Shown: piece after piece, positions 15,151 to 26,792 of the stretch
Layout of the letters: each line of letters opens with the position of its first letter
Numbering within the stretch: the first letter of the stretch is position 1
DNA from: Rhizodiscina lignyota
Lineage: Eukaryota
Reading direction: 5' to 3'
NCBI GenBank assembly: GCA_010015805.1
Contig: ML978125.1
Coordinates: 930,001-994,000 of the forward strand
Length of the DNA: 64,000 bases
Notes under the pieces: model-generated
What the model saw: the letters and a program-made list of their open reading frames with translations, nothing else
Told to the model about the DNA's origin: nothing
Databases searched by the model: none
Position numbers and translations under genes: made by a program

Positions 15151-17067
15151 ATGCCGGCCATGGTCTTCTTCCACCACCAGACGCCCACCGCGTCGACCCT
15201 CCCTCCGCCCTCCGATCCCTGGAAGCGCGAGGCCACAGCAGCTATGAAGAAGCACCATTCCGGCTATACAATTTCCAAGCCGACGCTCACCGAGGCCGAG
15301 TTCGCTGAGCTGCCTCCGTCGATTCAGTAGGTGCATTTCGTTTGATTTGTGTCTGGCGAGCACTTAAACTGCATTTATCCATCGGCTGCCTATCCTTCCA
15401 CCATCCCTTGACGTCGCTTTCCCCTCGCAGCAAGACGCAGCAATGCTATAGCCCGACTGGCGACGGACTCCTGGTCCAAGCCTCCGGCGAGTCGACCGTC
15501 AGCGGTCGCTAACTCGTTTGCGGATGGACCTTGCATTGGGAAGAAAAGGTCCCCGTCATGCATTGGCGCGAAACTGTCTCCCGCATGTCGAACCTACCTA
15601 CAAACGCATGCCCCTCCTCGCAGCTCGTCACCTCGCTTCACCTCACTTCTTCCTCTCGCACCTTTTAACTAACCTGCCATCCCCAGACGAAAGTATTTCT
15701 CTTCCGTCGAGCGTCTGCGAATTGCCGAGCATACCGCGTCTGTGCTTTCGCGAACTCGCCCAATCGAGCAACCAGCAAGGAGTGTCCGGCATTCGAAGAG
15801 CATTCCGTCTAGCCTCGATCAGGTCGCCCGCTCCAATTCCAAAAAACGTCGCCGGCTGCGAAAGCCCGAGGCCGCACTCTACGATCAATTGGTGTCCCAA
15901 AACGAGGCTCAATGGTTTCTTAACCTGCCGGAGAAGGTCCGCCGGCAACAATTCTCAAGAGAGGAGCAGATCTTGTTCGCCAGCCGATGCGACTCGCTTG
16001 CGCTGGACAGCACGGACGAAGCATCCCCTTCTGTCCCATCTGTACCATTCCAGAACGAGCTACCACCCCCTCGAACGCCAGTAAGGCCCAAGACTTCCTC
16101 ATCGCTTGGGACGACCTGTTTCGAACAGAGCCCCGTTCCAATTGTTGAGGAGGCAGTCTCTATAAAATACTTCAGGCCTGACGACATGGCATCCTGCTTC
16201 GATCCCTCCTTTACCAAAAGATCCCGCAGGCCGTCAACAAGGCGCACTCGTTCCATGAGCGGCGTAAGCACTCGACACTCCACGTCTTCTGTGCCTCCCC
16301 TGCTCCCCTCACCGTTCATGCATCAGGCTGGATCGGCGCATAAACGCGCCATTTCCTCTGCCCCACGAGCTTCCGAAAGCTCTGCGTCAGCGTTCGACCC
16401 AAATGCTGTACACTATAGCGACCCAGAAGCACGGATGAAGCTCCGAATGTATCTCGGTTCGCCTCAGAAGTTTGACGAGGCCTTGGAGTTTGGTTTTCCG
16501 TCCGGCGAGCAGGCTGAGGTGCCACTGACCGCTGACCGCAGCGTTCACTTCCTCGCTCCGCTCACACTTACCCACGACTTTCAGTCATTTCTGAATGATG
16601 ACTGGCTGTCCTTTCTGGATTCAGACGAAGAACTTGACGATGACGATGAGGTCGAGAGGGAGTCACTCCCAGACGCAGAGAGTCCTGTGACACCCGGCGA
16701 ATCTGACGAGATGTTTCGAAACTCGCCAAGAGTCCCATCACAGATGGCTTCGGTGGAGTCTGGTCCCTCTGCTCCACGTCCATCATCCAGCTACAAGCAG
16801 AAAACAGACGTGTTCGGCCACTCTGTATCAGGTAGCCGTGAGATGACTCTTCGCATGACGTTGACTCGACCCGACCTTCGTGCGAATGAGGTGGAGCTCT
16901 ATGGATGGCAAGGAAAGCCGAAAGATGATCCGCTCGCACTAGAAGAGCTGCCAATATCCGACGACATGAATGGAGGGCAAAGTCCATTTACCACCAAGCC
17001 GAACCGCAAGTCTGGACGCATGAGCATGAAGCAATTCTTGAACAAGGTCAGGAAAGAGCGCCGATAA
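15151..17067 (+). CDS. Conserved fungal hypothetical Ser/Pro-rich protein (often auto-annotated 'mucin')
   Basis: Exon 1 15151-15326 (..EAEFAELPPSI) and a 360-nt intron 15327-15686 give QRKYFSSVERLR. Conserved blocks LPEKVRRQQFSREEQ, ARMKLRMYLGSPQKFDEALEFGFPS and REMTLRMTLTRPDLRA. Confidence 0.75.
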
Positions 17068-17942: not shown

Positions 17943-19665
17943 ATGTCGCTCCTTTCCATCTACCAGCAGTTTCTGCGCACCCCAAATACCTCCGTCCTCG
18001 CCGACAATGCCGCGATATACTACATACCAACTCTCACTACCATCAATGAGCCAGCGGCGATCATTAGACACCTCCAGGCGCAAGGCAGGCAATTGAAGAA
18101 GAAGAGCGAGACGGCACTCGACGCGATAGAAGGCGCAAGTGGCCTGCATCTGGACACGGAGACCACCATCGAATTCATATCTGGTGGAGGAGCATATCTG
18201 CCTGGGCTGGATGATAATTTCATTGCGGACAAGATCGTCACGCTTCCTCTGGTAAGCCTGGCTTCAGCAGTTCTATCGGGACGTACAATTGACAACTTAT
18301 AACCAGTCTCACGCTGTCCATTTCGACGAACATCAGAAGATTTCCCACATACGCATCTCCTGGGATCAAGGCTCGCTTCTCAAGCAGATCGATGTTATCG
18401 GCGCGCGTGGCCGCAATTGGCCCCTTCGTGATGGCAAAGACCAGGCGCGTCTAATTGCTTCCAATAGCTCTGCACCCGTCGAGCAAGCACCTATCGCATC
18501 GCGACGGACCACAACTAGCGAGCCAGACAGTCGCGGACGCTCGCGCGGCAGCACTTCGACGAGTGCGACTGGAGATCCACACGCCAGCCTGTCACTCTTC
18601 GCACCGCGTCAGGATGATGATGGGGGTTCATTCTCGCCCACCAGCGGAGCGTCCGTCGCGACTCGCGTGTCTGCAAGGCCCCCAACACGCGATCTAACCG
18701 ATCTTCTCGCGGAAGACGCGCCTTCCCCTGCCTCTACCATCCAAAACCCGTCTCCGAAGAAGAATGGCAACCACGCAAGAGCTGGTGCAGGGAAGAACTA
18801 CCATCCTGTGCGCTTATTCGATGAGAACGACGAGCGTCCGGTGTCTCCTGAGAAGGTTGTCAAGCCCAACTCGAAGAAGTACCAACACTTCGAATTCGGT
18901 CAAGGCGAGGAGGCACCACCCGAGAACCCTGCTGTTCTTGCCGCTCTCGAAGAAAGGAACAGGAAGCATGCGAGCCAGTGGGCCTTTGAAGACTTCGTGA
19001 CGCCGGACAAAGTCAAGCCCAAGCTTCGCACGCAGGATATGCGAACGTTCGGATGGAGCGACGATGAGGAGGATGGTGAGACTTCTCCCATCCATCGTGA
19101 AGTCGTGCATCAGCCTCGCCCAGACGCAAAACCTCACTTTGAATTCGCGGATGACGGAACACCAATCGCCGAGCGTAAGCAAACCGCGACGAAGCTACAC
19201 AAGGGGAGTCTAGGATTGTACAAGGACCATATCTTGGGCGACGACGATGCGGAAGACCCTAATCTCGTGAAGAAGCCACTGTCAACCGTCACCAACATCA
19301 AGAATCAAGACCGCCATCGTGACTTCGACAGCCAATTCGAAATGACGGACGCGAGCCCGGTCGGCAAAGCTCGCGTTGACACCAGCGCTGGCGGAAACAA
19401 GGCAAAAGGCAATAGCAAGCCGAACGACAACCAGAAGAAAGTGCTCAATGGAATGAGTGCGAATTGGGGCATGTACGACAACTCGCCAGACAGCAGCTCG
19501 AAGGAGTCAAAGGAGAAGGAGAACCGCGGCATCAAGGCAGGCGGTAACGGCATGGGCGGGCGCAAGGGCGCGACACGACACTGGGGAATTGGAGACTCTG
19601 ATGAGGAAGACGCAGCACCGGCTAAGCAACAGCCTGCTGCCAACAAGACCTTCTGGGACTTTTGA
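17943..19665 (+). CDS. NTF2-like domain protein with disordered C-terminus (conserved fungal)
   Basis: Two exons, intron ~18251-18306. YIPTLTTI..., FISGGGAYLPGLDDNF, IRISWDQGSLLKQIDVIGARGRNWP, and terminal FWDF. Confidence 0.8.
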
Positions 19666-20631: not shown

Positions 20632-21068
20632 TCATTGAGCGCAGACGGAATTGCTAAAGTTGAGTACAATAGTACGGATTGACCATGCTTCGATCACAGC
20701 TTTAACCGTCTCATCTTCGTGATGGGGCTCAGCGTATGCTGTGGAAGCAGCCCGTGAGCCTCTCTTCTTTGAGGTCTTGGATTTCTTTTTGGCGATTCAT
20801 CCTCGATCTCCTCAACTTCTTCGTCAGAAAGGTCCTTAGGATCCTCTTCGACGTCATCATCTGGCCCAGCAATATACTCAAAAGCCTCGTCATCAAGAAA
20901 AGCATCATCGGCATCTAAGATGTATTCATCCTCAGCATCGGATGCCTCAAGCTCGACACCGTTGCTCTAGGCGATGTCATTGGACCATGTGTCGAAATAA
21001 TGATTATAACTGTCTCGAGTCAGGTACAGTAGTGGAGGCTTGCTTGCTTTTCCAAGTCCTTTAGACAT
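20632..21068 (-). pseudogene. Decayed gene fragment (acidic tract followed by basic tract)
   Basis: ATG 21068 MSKGLGKASKPPLLY...NDIA, then an in-frame TAG (20969-20967), then a highly acidic run (EASDAEDEYILDADDAFLDDEAFEY...). A protein-like continuation KKSKTSKKRGSRAA... needs a one-base shift at the A5 run near 20786. Confidence 0.45.
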
Positions 21069-21201
21069 ACCTCTATTAGGCCATGTTCGACCACGCTATT
21101 TGACGTCGGGAGAAGCCTCCTCATCACACTTGGACTTTGCGCAGAAATGTAATCACTTTGTGTTCAAAGTGTGCTCATCCAATTTGTGGGTATCTCGCTG
21201 G

Positions 21202-21876
21202 CTACATGAATGCGTCTGCCGGAATCTGATCCTTCTTCTCGGCATATATGGCCGATGCCTTGTCCCAGTCCCAATCGCCCGCCTCCAAGCACATCACCGC
21301 ATATTCCTTTCTCATCCTTGTGGCCTCCATCACCCTCTTCACCATCTCCTCCCTCCGCATCTCTTCCTTCCTGTCCTCCTCCGGGTCACTATCCGGCATC
21401 TCCACGTCTTCCATCTCCTCCGCCTGTTTGGGGGCATCTGCTTCGATTGTGATCGGAGTCCCCGCGAAGTCGTAGCCACTTAGGTTGATAGTGGCGATGT
21501 AGTCGCTCTTGACGACCTGGATGGTGAGCGTGCCATTGTTGACAGTGTGACTTTGGATCTGGACCGGGGCGCCTTGCCGTCTCCCGTGTGATGTGTTGTG
21601 CTTTTGTTTCGATATTGTCGCGCGTCGCTCGATGAATGCGATCAGCGCGGCAACTCCGCCGTCCGGGTTGCTGGAGGCTTTGCTGTTCCTCCAACCCGAC
21701 ACGTGAAGTGTCCTTAGCGGTTGTTCCGCGTGACGGTCTGGTGCCGCGGACATTGAGACATCGCTACCTCGGTCGGTGCGTGCGTGTTTGTAGTTGTTGT
21801 ATTGGTAGGATCGAGGGGCGTCTTGATGGTCATATGGTGTTTGTTGGCTGGATCGCTTCATTGTGAAAGCAGCCAT
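21202..21876 (-). CDS. Truncated Mex67/TAP-like protein: N-terminal RNA-binding region plus C-terminal TAP-C (UBA-like) domain
   Basis: Intronless 224 aa. LHVSGWRNSKASSNPDGGVAALIAFIERRA and LSGYDFAGTPITIE resemble the N-terminus of filamentous-fungal Mex67. EMVKRVMEATRMRKEYAVMCLEAGDWDWDKASAIYAEKKDQIPADAF is a TAP-C signature. Confidence 0.75.
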   Translation of the reverse strand: MAAFTMKRSSQQTPYDHQDAPRSYQYNNYKHARTDRGSDVSMSAAPDRHAEQPLRTLHVSGWRNSKASSNPDGGVAALIAFIERRATISKQKHNTSHGRRQGAPVQIQSHTVNNGTLTIQVVKSDYIATINLSGYDFAGTPITIEADAPKQAEEMEDVEMPDSDPEEDRKEEMRREEMVKRVMEATRMRKEYAVMCLEAGDWDWDKASAIYAEKKDQIPADAFM

Positions 21877-22383
21877 GATGGTGATGTTGTGTGTGTGTGT
21901 CGTTATCGAGAGTGTAGGGTAGTGTGGAGGTGTGCTTTAAGAGGTGTGCGTAGTCTTTGTGAAGCTTTCCCTGATGTGTATAAGTTGTGTACAAATGTTT
22001 GATGATAAATGGATGCTTTGAAGTTGTACTTCTCAAGCGATGTCTGAGTATTGTGTTGAGAAGAAGGAGAGGAAGAGACGGAAGCCTTTGTAGCTGACCC
22101 GCACACTGTGGGGAACTTTCATCAACGACGGGATCGCCAGAGTCTTGGCAGGGTCTCAGGCACCAGCCCTAGATCCGACCAATGACGACACCGTGCATTT
22201 AAAATCTCCGTCGCTCCCAACGCACAAGAGCGAAAACGTTGAAAAAACATCGCACAAACTTAATTTTTTAGTTTTTAATTCATCACTCATTATTGGATTG
22301 GCCAATGGCATGAGAGCTTTTGCATACAATCACGTCTGTACATCATTTCCAATTTCAGATATCCAGCGGTGACTGGATGTTAT

Positions 22384-25044
22384 TCAGGACTGCCACCGAA
22401 ACTTTTCGCTCCTCAGCATACTAACCAGGCCAATTGGTAGCAGGCCTTGGTCGCCCATCGCCAATCCACCGAAGCGCTCGATCAGGTCGGTAGCGTACAA
22501 TTCCAGGGCCCACTTCCAGTACGGCTTCAGGCCGCCCCACGTCTGCGAGAAATCCCCCGAGAACTCAATGTTCGAGGGCAGCGTCTTGAGGGCATTTTCG
22601 ACGTCCTGCGTGGCTTCAAGGACGTCCTCAGGAGATGCCTCCATCAACTCCTCGTACGTGCGATGAAGGTACGAACTTGTCTCTTCCATGAAGCTTGTGA
22701 ATTCCTTGAAGCCCATAAACGGCTCGTCTTCCTCAGGTTTGTAGGCACTAGTATTCAGATTAGGGTTGTGTTCCCCACTGTCATACTTTTCTTTCAGCCT
22801 CTCATAATCCTCCTCCTCTTTCTCGAAAGCGCGGTTGACCCTTTCCTTTGGAGAGATGAAAGGATGTCGCACCTGCATGAAGAGTGGGATAAACGGTGAT
22901 CGCAGTTCGAGTCCACCAAGCTCAATCGGCAGGTAGAAGAAGCCGTCTGGGAGATCGGTAACATCGAAGCGCTCACGGATGACCTTGCGGAGATATTCCG
23001 TTACGTTTGCACCAGAGCCTTGGTCGCTGTCAAACAGCCTTCGTTGGATGTACTCGAAAGTCTCGATCACCATCTTCACGTGTTCTTTTCCGAAGCATCG
23101 CGCAGGTTGGCCAAAGTTGTTGCTAAAGAAGCGGTCGACGTAGCTGTTGTATGCCTGAACCCAAGCGAACACACTTCGGCACGCGGACAGTTGACGCTGC
23201 AGCTCCTTGATATGGTCCTCGACCTCTTCCTTGTCGATCACCCATCGGCCTGATCTGGCATCCAGTTTGAGGAAACCCCATCGGACAGCACCGGAGGGTA
23301 GCACAGATGATGGTTTCTTGATGGAACCAGCTTCGCCAGATACCTGCACTGCACCGGTCTTCTCCTCATTCAGTTCTAAGCCCATGACTTTGGAGAATTC
23401 GAGGATCGCTTTCCATGCCTCCGCACACACAGTCTCCTGCCCCCAAAACCAGAGGTCGTCATGGAAACGGTATATGTTTGCTCCCTTCGTGCGTTGATTG
23501 ACTGCAAAGTCAAGGCAAAAGAGTACCGCCTCACCGAGCGCATCGCTCAGGATATGGGACATTGGAATGCCACGCTGTCTTCTCCGCACCTCTGAGTCTG
23601 CACCATCGTGTGCGAAAGAGAGTGGTGTCTCGAGGAACTTCTTGAAGAAGCGGAGCCATTTCGTCTTTACTCCGAAAAACTTCAGCACTGTGAAGATGGT
23701 CGAATGCGGCAGAGAAGGACCAAACCACTTAAAGTCGGACTGGAGGATGGTGAATCCTCCATACAGTTTTGTGTTGACCAGCAATTCCGCAGTCGCCAGC
23801 CGCAGCATCGATTGCTTTATCACCATCGGGGCCTTCCTCTCGCCTAGGGCGAAGCTGTCAACGCTGTCATCTCCGTAGTCGCGTCCGCCGCCGTGGAATT
23901 GCGAAGGGAGTTGCGTCATGAAATAGTCCGTCTCATACATTGTCCTCCTCTCATTGCGCACGGTGGAAGCATTTCGGAGCCCCGAGTCGCTTCCCAAGAA
24001 GAACTCCCGTCTTTGTCTGTCTCTCTTGCCCATTGCTTTGTATGGATTGACAAGCCAAGCACCGGAGTGAAAGAACGATGTAAATGTCTGCTTTAGTAGT
24101 ACGGCCCACTTCGATCCGATGAAGTGGAGAAATATCGCCTGATGCAACTCTTCATCCATGAAGACGCGATACTTCCCATTGAGCTGTCGTCGCATGTGCA
24201 GCGGCACAGGTTGGGGATCCCATTTCCATTCTTCCAGGGAATCAAGATCCATGTTAAGGACATCCGCCATTTCAGCAAGGACGTCATCTCGGTCGCGAAG
24301 GTCAACCAAAGCCTCTCTCTTGGGTCCGGTAAAGAGGTCGGCCCTCAACAGCCCTTGGATGCAGGTGCACACAATACCAGCATCGAAGCGCTCTGGAGAC
24401 ATCTTATCGATATCCTTCAATTTCTCCCGCAGCTCTTCCAGCGGCGTCTTCTTCAGCTTTTTCGACTTGTGAACAGTTGCGAACAATTCTTGTAGATATT
24501 TTTCAATCGCAGATTGATCAGTCTCCTTAGCTTTGAAGGCGTAGCTCTCCCATTCTTTCCGCTGCTCATGCATCTCTTCGCGCCCGACCTGCTCAAAAGA
24601 CGTACTCGACTCTTCCGAGCTGTCTGAGTCTCTTCGCTTCTGGCCTGAAGCTCCAGCAACGGCATCGTTCGGGTTCTCAATCCATTCCGTTACCAGACGC
24701 CCAAACAGCGAGGCGTACTCGTATTTGAGGGCCTGGATATCGAGATCGTGTTCGAGCTTTTGCTGCCACTGTTTCAACAGTGCCTCAGAGACTGAAGGGT
24801 CATGCTTCGACTGGTCGAGGAAGCGAGTGACATTCTTTTCAGAGATGCCAGTTCGCCCGACTGTGATACTATGCTTTTCGCAACCTTCCAACAGAGCTCT
24901 GACTTTCTTCTCCAGGCTAGGTTCAGATTCGGCAGCCTTAAGGATCGCCTGCCTTTGCGAGTCGAACCTTTTCCGGAGTTCCACAAGCTTTTCGAGCTTC
25001 TTCTCTGTGACGTGGTGGAGAGTGGAGAGGACTGCGGAAGCCAT
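22384..25044 (-). CDS. rvt: RVT-class cellular reverse transcriptase-related protein
   Basis: Intronless 886 aa. Helical, coiled-coil-like N-terminus. RT motifs GKYRVFMDEE, LQSDFKWFGPSLPH, RGIPMSHILSDALGE, YRFHDDLWFW (23455-23466), GLELNEEKTG, VRWGFL. No endonuclease, RNase H, integrase, gag or flanking repeats seen. Confidence 0.9.
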   Translation of the reverse strand: MASAVLSTLHHVTEKKLEKLVELRKRFDSQRQAILKAAESEPSLEKKVRALLEGCEKHSITVGRTGISEKNVTRFLDQSKHDPSVSEALLKQWQQKLEHDLDIQALKYEYASLFGRLVTEWIENPNDAVAGASGQKRRDSDSSEESSTSFEQVGREEMHEQRKEWESYAFKAKETDQSAIEKYLQELFATVHKSKKLKKTPLEELREKLKDIDKMSPERFDAGIVCTCIQGLLRADLFTGPKREALVDLRDRDDVLAEMADVLNMDLDSLEEWKWDPQPVPLHMRRQLNGKYRVFMDEELHQAIFLHFIGSKWAVLLKQTFTSFFHSGAWLVNPYKAMGKRDRQRREFFLGSDSGLRNASTVRNERRTMYETDYFMTQLPSQFHGGGRDYGDDSVDSFALGERKAPMVIKQSMLRLATAELLVNTKLYGGFTILQSDFKWFGPSLPHSTIFTVLKFFGVKTKWLRFFKKFLETPLSFAHDGADSEVRRRQRGIPMSHILSDALGEAVLFCLDFAVNQRTKGANIYRFHDDLWFWGQETVCAEAWKAILEFSKVMGLELNEEKTGAVQVSGEAGSIKKPSSVLPSGAVRWGFLKLDARSGRWVIDKEEVEDHIKELQRQLSACRSVFAWVQAYNSYVDRFFSNNFGQPARCFGKEHVKMVIETFEYIQRRLFDSDQGSGANVTEYLRKVIRERFDVTDLPDGFFYLPIELGGLELRSPFIPLFMQVRHPFISPKERVNRAFEKEEEDYERLKEKYDSGEHNPNLNTSAYKPEEDEPFMGFKEFTSFMEETSSYLHRTYEELMEASPEDVLEATQDVENALKTLPSNIEFSGDFSQTWGGLKPYWKWALELYATDLIERFGGLAMGDQGLLPIGLVSMLRSEKFRWQS

Positions 25045-25823: not shown

Positions 25824-26792
25824 ATGGGGTTCGAGCAAATCAATATCACAGAAGTCCCATCAGATCTCGGCTCCGTCTATCGGGGCAAGTCTCGCGGCCC
25901 CGGTGCATTTACAAACGCAGGTCTGCTCAGAAAACTTGCGGCTTCGGGAATGGGATTGCGGATAGAAGCAACCGCCTTAGCTGCTGGCGACTTTGCATGG
26001 GCCTCCTCCACGCGAGAGCCAAATGGAGCACGCAACGAAGCAAAGTGTGTCGAAGCTTGCGGACAGGTTCAACGAGTCATCGGACAACGTCTTGCCAGTA
26101 TGGGGCCCGAGAAGACCTTTCAATTGATATTTTCTGGCGAATGTCTATACTGTCCTGCGATTTTGTCGGCTTACTGGCATTATCTGAGTGGGACTGGGCG
26201 GCGTGTGGGCATTATCTACGTCGATGCCGATTGCGATTTGTACACTCCAGTGGAACCGAACTCGACAGGAAACATTGCTGGCATGACACTTACACATCTA
26301 ACACTACGTGATGGGGCGTTGGAGAGTATGAAGGAGTTCAGTCGCCCCGACGGCTCTGGAGTGGTCGACAGTAACAACATCGTTCTGTTCGGACTCAACA
26401 TTGACTCTCCCGCGAACAAGCGTGAGCATCTGGGCTACCTTTTTGACAACAACTTTCGGGTTGTCACATCCCAAACGGTACAGAAAGCGCCGCTAGAGCA
26501 AGCGAGAGAGGCCTTGAAATGGTTGGAAGATCGGGTTGATCTCATTCTCGTCCATTTGGACGTGGACGTAATCGATCCCGGTCTGTTTCCATTGGGCAAT
26601 GTTCCCAGCTGGACAGGCCTTGGATTCAAGGAAACTATGGCTGCGGTTAAAGTATTTCTGAATAGCCAAAAGACTGTAGGACTCAGTGTTGCTGAGGTGA
26701 ATCCTGATCATGCCCCGGGGTTGACGATGACGGGGCAGCTTCTCGACGAGATCATTGAGGGTCTGAAGGAAAGACAGACATCCAGAAACTAA
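25824..26792 (+). CDS. Arginase/ureohydrolase-family protein (atypical ligands)
   Basis: Intronless 322 aa. SRGPGA, FSGEC, YVDADCDL, VHLDVDVIDP and VAEVNPDH motifs. Confidence 0.85.
   Translation: MGFEQINITEVPSDLGSVYRGKSRGPGAFTNAGLLRKLAASGMGLRIEATALAAGDFAWASSTREPNGARNEAKCVEACGQVQRVIGQRLASMGPEKTFQLIFSGECLYCPAILSAYWHYLSGTGRRVGIIYVDADCDLYTPVEPNSTGNIAGMTLTHLTLRDGALESMKEFSRPDGSGVVDSNNIVLFGLNIDSPANKREHLGYLFDNNFRVVTSQTVQKAPLEQAREALKWLEDRVDLILVHLDVDVIDPGLFPLGNVPSWTGLGFKETMAAVKVFLNSQKTVGLSVAEVNPDHAPGLTMTGQLLDEIIEGLKERQTSRN

Follow-up and report, generated by a model that had tools for sequence, protein, structure and literature searches.

A gene for a domain-reduced Mex67-like protein, RRM plus TAP-C, in Rhizodiscina lignyota

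We analysed a stretch of 64,000 nucleotides from Rhizodiscina lignyota (assembly GCA_010015805.1, contig ML978125.1, positions 930,001 to 994,000 of the forward strand; hereafter the window), in which a gene on the minus strand encodes a small relative of the export receptor Mex67. The Mex67:Mtr2 pair (NXF1:NXT1) is usually treated as the single, invariant and essential export receptor of fungi. Canonical Mex67 has the domain order RRM-LRR-NTF2-like-TAP-C, is about 600–700 residues long and forms a heterodimer with Mtr2, whereas the protein studied here, P0001, has 224 residues and lacks both the LRR and the NTF2-like domain. On sequence grounds it is a Mex67 homolog by descent that fails two of the four domains defining the family: descent, RRM and TAP-C agree with Mex67/NXF1, while the LRR and the NTF2-like domain, which heterodimerises with Mtr2/p15, are missing. 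We give an even chance to the reading that this is a maintained gene for a domain-reduced Mex67 descendant, whose product would be an Mtr2-independent accessory or modulating factor at the pore, docking there by its TAP-C domain. The gene and its parts, with the predicted local distance difference test score (pLDDT) where it was used, are as follows.

21202..21876, minus strand: reduced Mex67-like gene for P0001, an open reading frame (ORF) of 224 amino acids with its stop codon at 21202–21204
21727..21876, minus strand: disordered N-terminal region, residues 1–50 (block-mean pLDDT 50–64)
21751..21780, minus strand: eroded Mex67 N-terminal motif RTDRGSDVSM, residues 33–42 (34-row alignment A2)
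21433..21726, minus strand: Mex67-type RRM, residues 51–148 (PDB sequence match and Foldseek)
21364..21432, minus strand: acidic linker, residues 149–171 (charge and low pLDDT)
21205..21363, minus strand: TAP-C domain (UBA-like), residues 172–224, at the C-terminus of the protein (Pfam and model)

A preliminary description, made from the letters of the window, had reported an intronless ORF of 224 residues, and the frame is indeed single and unbroken from ATG to TAG over 224 codons. Both ends of the gene look complete by homology: the start resembles an internal start of the relative P0003 (MAAFTM in P0001, MPAITM in P0003), and the C-terminus coincides with the usual end of the Mex67 family. 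The GC content at codon positions 1, 2 and 3 is 0.56, 0.44 and 0.68, a pattern like that of the neighbouring ORFs, and the third-position value lies at the top of the range of seven of them (0.52–0.65).

The same description had called the N-terminal part Mex67-like, and this was confirmed. Residues 49–146 match the RRM of Chaetomium thermophilum Mex67 (chain 4wpm_A, E = 1.1 × 10−7). An AlphaFold2 model of P0001 was built from a 34-sequence alignment (mean pLDDT 83.6; block means of at least 94 for residues 51–140, 89 for residues 141–150, and at least 91 from residue 171 to the end), and its top Foldseek matches in the PDB were the Mex67 RRMs 4wpm and 4wwu, with template-modelling (TM) scores by target of 0.83–0.86; generic RRMs came next. 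The Pfam model of the Mex67 RRM, RRM_9, matched only in part, at 22.0 bits and under its cut-off of 25.9. The check by hidden Markov models (HMMs) and AlphaFold that had been suggested thus recovered the Mex67 RRM fold and a TAP_C match above cut-off, with RRM_9 below it. The RRM has a net charge of +3; the 34 aligned proteins range from 0 to +8, which puts it in their lower half. P0001 shares a homologous N-terminal motif, RRM and TAP-C with canonical fungal Mex67 (P0008 of Lineolata rhizophorae; 4wpm and 4wp2 of C. thermophilum), and also the long RRM helix and insert of the Dothideomycete type, which reads ERRATISKQKHNTS in P0001 and EKRATISSQKYANA in P0008.

The N-terminal region before the xGW motif has 59 residues in P0001, compared with 130 in P0003 and 132 in P0004, and it lacks the QRExLRR motif that is present in both of these proteins. 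The family consensus of the Mex67 N-terminal motif is R-x-D-[RK]-D-G-D-[LV]-x-M, and P0001 carries GS in place of DG. The full motif is found in 26 of the 33 other rows of the alignment; M42 alone is nearly invariant (at least 90% of rows). Between the two domains, an acidic linker of about 25 residues had been described, and the net charge is −9 across the 25 residues 147–171. The block-mean pLDDT of the linker is 51 for residues 151–160 and 70 for residues 161–170. It is identical at 7 of 22 positions to that of P0003 and at 8 of 22 to that of P0002, and its length varies among the relatives (23 compared with 36 residues). A match to the chaperone HscB (1fpo_A, E = 6 × 10−4, residues 99–204) spans the charged linker together with helices and had no backing from the fold search, and was set aside as chance.

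The TAP-C domain was described earlier as complete, which agrees with a Pfam TAP_C match over residues 177–223 (E = 2.8 × 10−14; 52.8 bits, cut-off 21.3) and with its retained core. The near-invariant residues of fungal TAP-C domains, C196, L197, W202, A207 and F/Y211, are all kept (with Y at 211), and the Trp of the W-D/N loop is present. The model has three helices with block-mean pLDDT of at least 91, and the C-terminus gave weak sequence matches in the PDB (4wp2_A, E = 0.018; 1go5_A, 0.058; 1oai_A, 0.087). On our alignment, residue I210 presumably corresponds to A602 of human Nxf1 and G583 of yeast Mex67. That position is given as part of the phenylalanine-glycine (FG) pocket in the excerpted text of 10.1101/608273. 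A pocket blocked by I210 was considered and rejected as non-discriminating: L, I or M occupies the same position in 28 of 63 TAP-C domains of full-length proteins.

The clean absence of the two middle domains had also been claimed, and it was borne out at two levels. A Pfam scan of P0001 found no LRR (PF24048) and no NTF2-like domain (PF22602), and a tblastn search of the 64-kb window with the full-length Mex67 P0008 and the RRM-LRR-TAP-C relative P0006 found no remnant of either. These queries matched the RRM and the TAP-C of the P0001 ORF, and all other matches had E of at least 0.5. Only 23 residues separate the RRM from the TAP-C domain. Because P0001 has no NTF2-like domain, it cannot bind Mtr2 through such a domain, and the proposed independence from Mtr2 is in this respect consistent with the predicted protein.

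Relatives were sought by several routes. A word-index search at similar length returned P0002 as the sole relative (179 residues, 53% identical, the same two Pfam domains; 2 of 213 candidates including the query), and among longer proteins none of 993 candidates scored. A profile of P0001 and P0002 was run exhaustively with HMMER over 1.84 billion representatives; 184 proteins had E ≤ 0.001, 50 of them reaching 10−10 and six 10−30. The Pfam scan took in 94 of the 150 listed profile matches, the 56 left out being mostly short fragments. The architectures of the 94 were distributed as follows.

52 of 94: with the NXF NTF2 domain (canonical type)
18 of 94: LRR and TAP-C without NTF2 (three are short fragments)
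3 of 94: RRM and one TAP-C alone (P0002, P0003 and P0044)
2 of 94: RRM and two TAP-C (P0004 and P0005; RRM detected with a custom HMM)
4 of 94: two to four TAP-C domains alone (P0041, P0009, P0030 and P0055)
15 of 94: fragments or other

The search of fungi for the same two-domain layout, proposed in the preliminary description, therefore yielded P0002 and P0003, which are 51–58% identical in this group, and P0044 from Corynespora, which belongs to the same 90% cluster as a Corynespora cassiicola "TAP-C domain-containing protein" (P0151, 294 residues). Mex67-like proteins without NTF2 came from Massarina eburnea, Hypomontagnella submonticulosa, Phlyctema vagabunda and a metagenome-assembled genome (MAG) of Trizodia. 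The full-length proteins nearest to P0001 are those of Lineolata, Aulographum, Phyllosticta, Neofusicoccum, Pseudovirgaria and lichen-forming fungi. Taxonomy was checked for Massarina, Corynespora, Lineolata, Melanomma and Meristemomyces; Lineolata is in the class Dothideomycetes, and we take Aulographum, Phyllosticta, Neofusicoccum and Pseudovirgaria to be so as well.

A further word-index search was made with the Massarina protein. It returned 49 proteins, 37 of them without an NTF2 family in the precomputed Pfam annotation, and 28 of these 37 are 373–490 residues long (P0057, P0159–P0185). Nine genera are named among the NTF2-less proteins: Massarina, Byssothecium, Kalmusia, Periconia, Didymosphaeria, Paraphaeosphaeria, Bimuria, Massariosphaeria and Lentithecium. 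Massarina belongs to the Massarineae by the checked taxonomy, and the others are presumably members of the same suborder. The remaining 12 proteins carry the NTF2 family, with Melanomma, Pleomassaria and Delitschia as named sources. In this search, which scored only word-sharing candidates, none of the named species with an NTF2-less protein also contributed an NTF2-bearing one; this does not count as evidence against a canonical Mex67 in them. With P0001 as query, an Atlas structure search reached Mex67 clusters at TM scores by query of only 0.35–0.40, an Atlas feature search gave no usable match, and a scan of metagenome contigs matched 361 patterns and confirmed no relative.

Two unusual settings of TAP-C were met among the matches. 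Arrays of four TAP-C domains occur in a protein of 603 residues from Meristemomyces frigidus (Mycosphaerellales) and in a protein of 289 residues; P0055 has three and P0041 has two. To our knowledge, such arrays have not been described. P0090, with 990 residues, combines TAP-C with a PDZ domain and CCCH zinc fingers.

The origin of P0001 was investigated with two trees, one from RRM and TAP-C (37 rows, 142 columns, careful search) and one from full-length proteins (53 rows, 415 columns, quick search, supports from the Shimodaira–Hasegawa approximate likelihood-ratio test (SH-aLRT) only). P0001, P0002 and P0003 form a clade in both (99/99 in the RRM and TAP-C tree; SH-aLRT 98 in the full-length tree). 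In the former, the RRM-LRR-TAP-C protein P0006 joins this clade weakly (83/55), and the pair P0004/P0005 with two TAP-C domains (100/98) joins these four at 91/91. The same six-member reduced clade is recovered in the full-length tree with a support of 94, where it is nested among full-length Mex67 proteins of non-Pleosporales Dothideomycetes (Lineolata, Aulographum, Pseudovirgaria, Phyllosticta and Neofusicoccum; support 93). Thus the descent from Mex67 that had been supposed agrees both with the profile search, which returns Mex67, and with the position of P0001 inside Dothideomycete Mex67.

In the clade of P0001, the NTF2-like domain seems to have been lost before the LRR, because the clade includes P0006, which keeps RRM, LRR and TAP-C, and because all three two-domain members are without LRR; on this ground the stepwise loss would precede their divergence. 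The internal deletion of a full-length gene in one step, as suggested before, is not what the members P0006, P0002 and P0003 indicate. Stepwise loss is also a better fit than a retrogene origin tied to the neighbouring reverse-transcriptase (rvt) gene. We read the layout of P0001 as older than the split of its three known members.

Outside this clade, the full-length tree has a separate group (98) that unites the two-domain protein of Corynespora with NTF2-less proteins from Massarina and six related genera. This group falls within a Pleosporales clade (100), to which the full-length proteins of Delitschia, Melanomma and Pleomassaria also belong. Six further NTF2-less proteins make up a third clade on a long stem (support 100), and NTF2-less proteins that stand singly are paired with full-length proteins of related taxa. 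The backbone support of this tree is weak, and some of the isolated cases, such as MAG gene models, may be annotation errors. The label "LRR + TAP-C only" requires at least six changes on the starred branches alone. A single origin of the four two-domain proteins, a group defined from Pfam before tree building, costs 66.85 log-likelihood units as a constraint and was rejected by the approximately unbiased (AU) test (p-AU = 0.0045). By these trees, the Corynespora protein is an independent gain of the RRM plus TAP-C layout, and our reading is that the NTF2-like domain has been lost recurrently in Pezizomycotina and the LRR at least twice.

To distinguish constraint from decay, protein positions were compared at the 97 columns where P0002 and P0003 are identical, with entropies taken from 23 full-length Mex67 proteins. 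P0001 differs at 31 of the 97, and the mean entropy of these columns is 2.36, compared with 1.50 at the 66 unchanged ones (one-sided Mann–Whitney, p = 4 × 10−6). The same bias to variable columns is seen in P0002 (p = 2.5 × 10−4) and in P0003 (p = 0.013). Of the 26 columns with the highest conservation, 21 show the majority residue in P0001, compared with 22 and 23 in two canonical proteins; the five deviations are conservative (L>I, K>R, N>S, F>Y and L>I). Identity to P0003 is 61 of 98 in the RRM, 29 of 53 in TAP-C and 15 of 48 in the N-terminus, besides the value for the linker given above. Because the changes specific to P0001 avoid positions conserved in canonical Mex67, constraint is favoured over decay.

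Several observations weigh against a maintained gene for a pore-docking protein. The lineage-specific changes of P0001 are about 2.3 times those of either sister (31, compared with 14 and 13), and its terminal branch in the RRM and TAP-C tree is 0.37, compared with 0.18 and 0.10. The eroded N-terminal motif (GS for DG), the N-terminal region shorter by about 70 residues and the lack of QRExLRR could reflect relaxed constraint. The constraint test is a comparison of proteins, not of non-synonymous and synonymous substitution rates (dN/dS), and structural bias could contribute to its outcome. The two-domain clade consists of three known members, each the only sequence of its cluster. In addition, the TAP-C domain could have a ligand other than FG repeats, as in Drosophila Nxf2 according to the excerpted 10.1101/608273.

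The proposed function rests on what each domain does in canonical proteins. FG-nucleoporins are the known ligand of the TAP-C domain, and that of P0001 would dock on them without need for Mtr2. The RRM and the N-terminal motif may engage the partners of the canonical module, that is, adaptor proteins or, weakly, RNA. At the pore or on partner proteins of Mex67, P0001 might then bridge to canonical Mex67 cargo complexes or compete with them.

Published work limits this function. In the excerpts of PMC4488659, NTF2L and UBA hold one FG site each, two sites are essential for export by Tap, and derivatives of Tap with two copies of either NTF2L or UBA export below the efficiency of the wild type. 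For yeast Mex67, the part of PMC4330389 used here describes an RRM without RNP1 and RNP2 motifs, an affinity of the RRM-LRR fragment for A15 RNA of 12 µM as opposed to 260–310 nM with NTF2L:Mtr2, and hardly any change of RNA affinity on deletion of the RRM. We therefore regard as doubtful the earlier suggestion that P0001 could still bind RNA. We infer that P0001 has one presumptive FG site and at best a weak RNA-binding module. A stand-alone exporter is unlikely because there is a single FG site and no RNA-binding platform of LRR and NTF2L:Mtr2. Of the "Mtr2-independent export adaptor" proposed at first, the independence from Mtr2 stands, while self-sufficient export would be improbable. The doubled TAP-C of the sisters P0004 and P0005 suggests selection on the pore-docking end.

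A wider view may be put forward tentatively, and we hold it to be possible but rather less than probable. Filamentous ascomycetes may have repeatedly evolved an undescribed class of Mtr2-independent derivatives of Mex67, some without NTF2, some of them also without LRR and some with two to four TAP-C domains, that serve as a second route of pore docking or as a brake for specific RNAs or ribonucleoproteins (RNPs). P0001 would be the most reduced of them, and P0004 and P0005, with two TAP-C domains each, a natural "2xUBA" Tap that exports without p15.

Other explanations of P0001 were weighed. It could export a particular cargo by itself and independently of Mtr2, as a mini-exporter, if several copies sat on each RNA or RNP, or associated with each other, so that two or more TAP-C domains were present per cargo. 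Such an exporter is in keeping with the residual mRNA export by two-UBA derivatives of Tap (PMC4488659, in excerpt), with the natural RRM and two-TAP-C forms P0004 and P0005, and with the proteins of three or four TAP-C domains (P0009, P0030 and P0055). P0001 itself, however, has one TAP-C, its RRM has a modest net charge, and the Mex67 RRM lacks RNP motifs and, together with the LRR, binds RNA at 12 µM (PMC4330389, in excerpt); we think this explanation unlikely. Even less probable, in our estimate, is a TAP-C re-purposed for a partner other than FG repeats, such as a silencing or transcription-coupled factor or ubiquitylated proteins, with an action in the nucleus and not at the pore. In the excerpted 10.1101/608273, the UBA of Drosophila Nxf2 binds Panoramix and has lost the FG pocket, and the rvt-like gene beside P0001 is suggestive, though no more than that, of a similar diversion. 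P0001 retains, however, the near-invariant TAP-C residues listed above. The pocket position highlighted in Nxf2, which presumably corresponds to I210 of P0001, is also L, I or M in the 28 of 63 domains of full-length proteins and does not discriminate.

P0001 could also be a non-functional remnant, a decaying duplicate of Mex67 whose frame is still open by chance. Its long terminal branch, its excess of specific changes over the sisters and its eroded and shortened N-terminal region would be expected of decay, but the frame of 224 codons is intact with both domain cores preserved, the changes avoid conserved columns, and the top-conserved residues are retained as often as in canonical proteins. 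The layout is also retained in two other lineages at 51–58% identity, and the codon-position GC pattern matches that of the neighbouring ORFs, which together make a remnant a poor, if conceivable, explanation. An artefact of assembly or annotation, namely a collapsed or chimeric form of the genome's only MEX67 locus, is very improbable. An independently built Logan contig of 136,752 bases, possibly from the source sample itself, spans 20700–22500 without joints and with 0 differences. The same layout, without a junction, is encoded in two other sources, and the linker is an acidic segment of conserved type with no break.

Compared with canonical Mex67, P0001 lacks LRR and NTF2-like, and with them go the Mtr2 site, the second FG site and the main RNA-binding platform. 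The closest engineered parallel is the 2xUBA Tap/NXF1 of Braun et al. 2002, as reported in the excerpts of PMC4488659: it too is without NTF2-like:p15 and contacts the pore by UBA/TAP-C, but it keeps the RNA-binding N-terminus and the LRR and has two UBA domains, whereas P0001 is without LRR and has a single TAP-C. That construct, as far as these excerpts describe it, has apparent natural counterparts in P0004 and P0005. C. cassiicola P0151 and the proteins of about 400–420 residues from Massarina, Byssothecium, Kalmusia, Periconia, Didymosphaeria, Paraphaeosphaeria and Bimuria are NTF2-less like P0001, and P0151 also lacks the LRR; they differ in belonging to a separate Pleosporales lineage (100) and bear automatic names only. 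No functional study of them was found in the literature searched.

Duplicates of the export receptor that were diverted to special tasks are known from Drosophila (Nxf2 and Nxf3) and from trypanosomes (TbMex67b and TbMex67L). According to the excerpted sources, Nxf2 counteracts Nxf1 (10.1101/608273), the trypanosome paralogs divide labour (PMC12774637), and the NTF2-like domain is still present in the Drosophila paralogs, which act together with Nxt1 (10.1101/608273; 10.1101/596171). The Drosophila paralogs are thus not cut down to RRM and TAP-C as P0001 is, and the trypanosome ones are not known to be. The preliminary description knew of no account of this architecture. That holds for publications, since no paper on NTF2-less or RRM plus TAP-C derivatives of fungal Mex67 was found in the full text searched, with subscription journals mostly outside it; the layout itself is already present in public protein sets under automatic names, as in C. 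cassiicola.

If conserved, a derivative with an RRM and an FG-binding TAP-C, with its NTF2-less and TAP-C-duplicated relatives, would amount to a natural dissection of the export receptor. Such proteins would allow us to ask what the RRM and the N-terminal motif bind alone, whether one TAP-C domain, or two, is enough to pass the pore in vivo, and whether fungi, like flies, regulate or counteract bulk export with paralogs of the receptor. Should P0001 be a decoy or a brake, it would be the first fungal case of such a logic, as far as the literature searched shows.

The nearest neighbour of the gene on its upstream side is the following.

22384..25044, minus strand: ORF of 886 amino acids with a reverse-transcriptase domain, fungal rvt type (Pfam RVT_1 and Atlas)

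Its RVT_1 match has 27.9 bits, under the cut-off of 29.6, and it resembles Ascomycota clusters of "reverse transcriptase domain-containing protein" in the Atlas (855–888 residues, TM 0.89–0.91). We take it to be of the single-copy fungal "rvt" type. It lies on the same strand, 507 bp upstream of the P0001 gene, so that the position "directly downstream of rvt" given at first is correct. The adjacency is noted as context only.

A (TG)6 microsatellite is found at 21888–21899, which is (CA)n on the coding strand and lies 12 bases upstream of the P0001 start codon. Just downstream of the P0001 ORF, at about 20690–21076 on the minus strand, there is an acid-rich frame of about 128 codons (MSKGLGKASK...DDDVEEDPKDLSDEEVEE...) with one in-frame stop, which may be a small intron-bearing gene or a relic. 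The ORFs at 16186–17067 and 19039–19665 matched no Pfam family. Beyond the rvt-like gene, an ORF of the arginase family lies at 25824–26792 on the plus strand (Pfam Arginase, E = 1.7 × 10−21).

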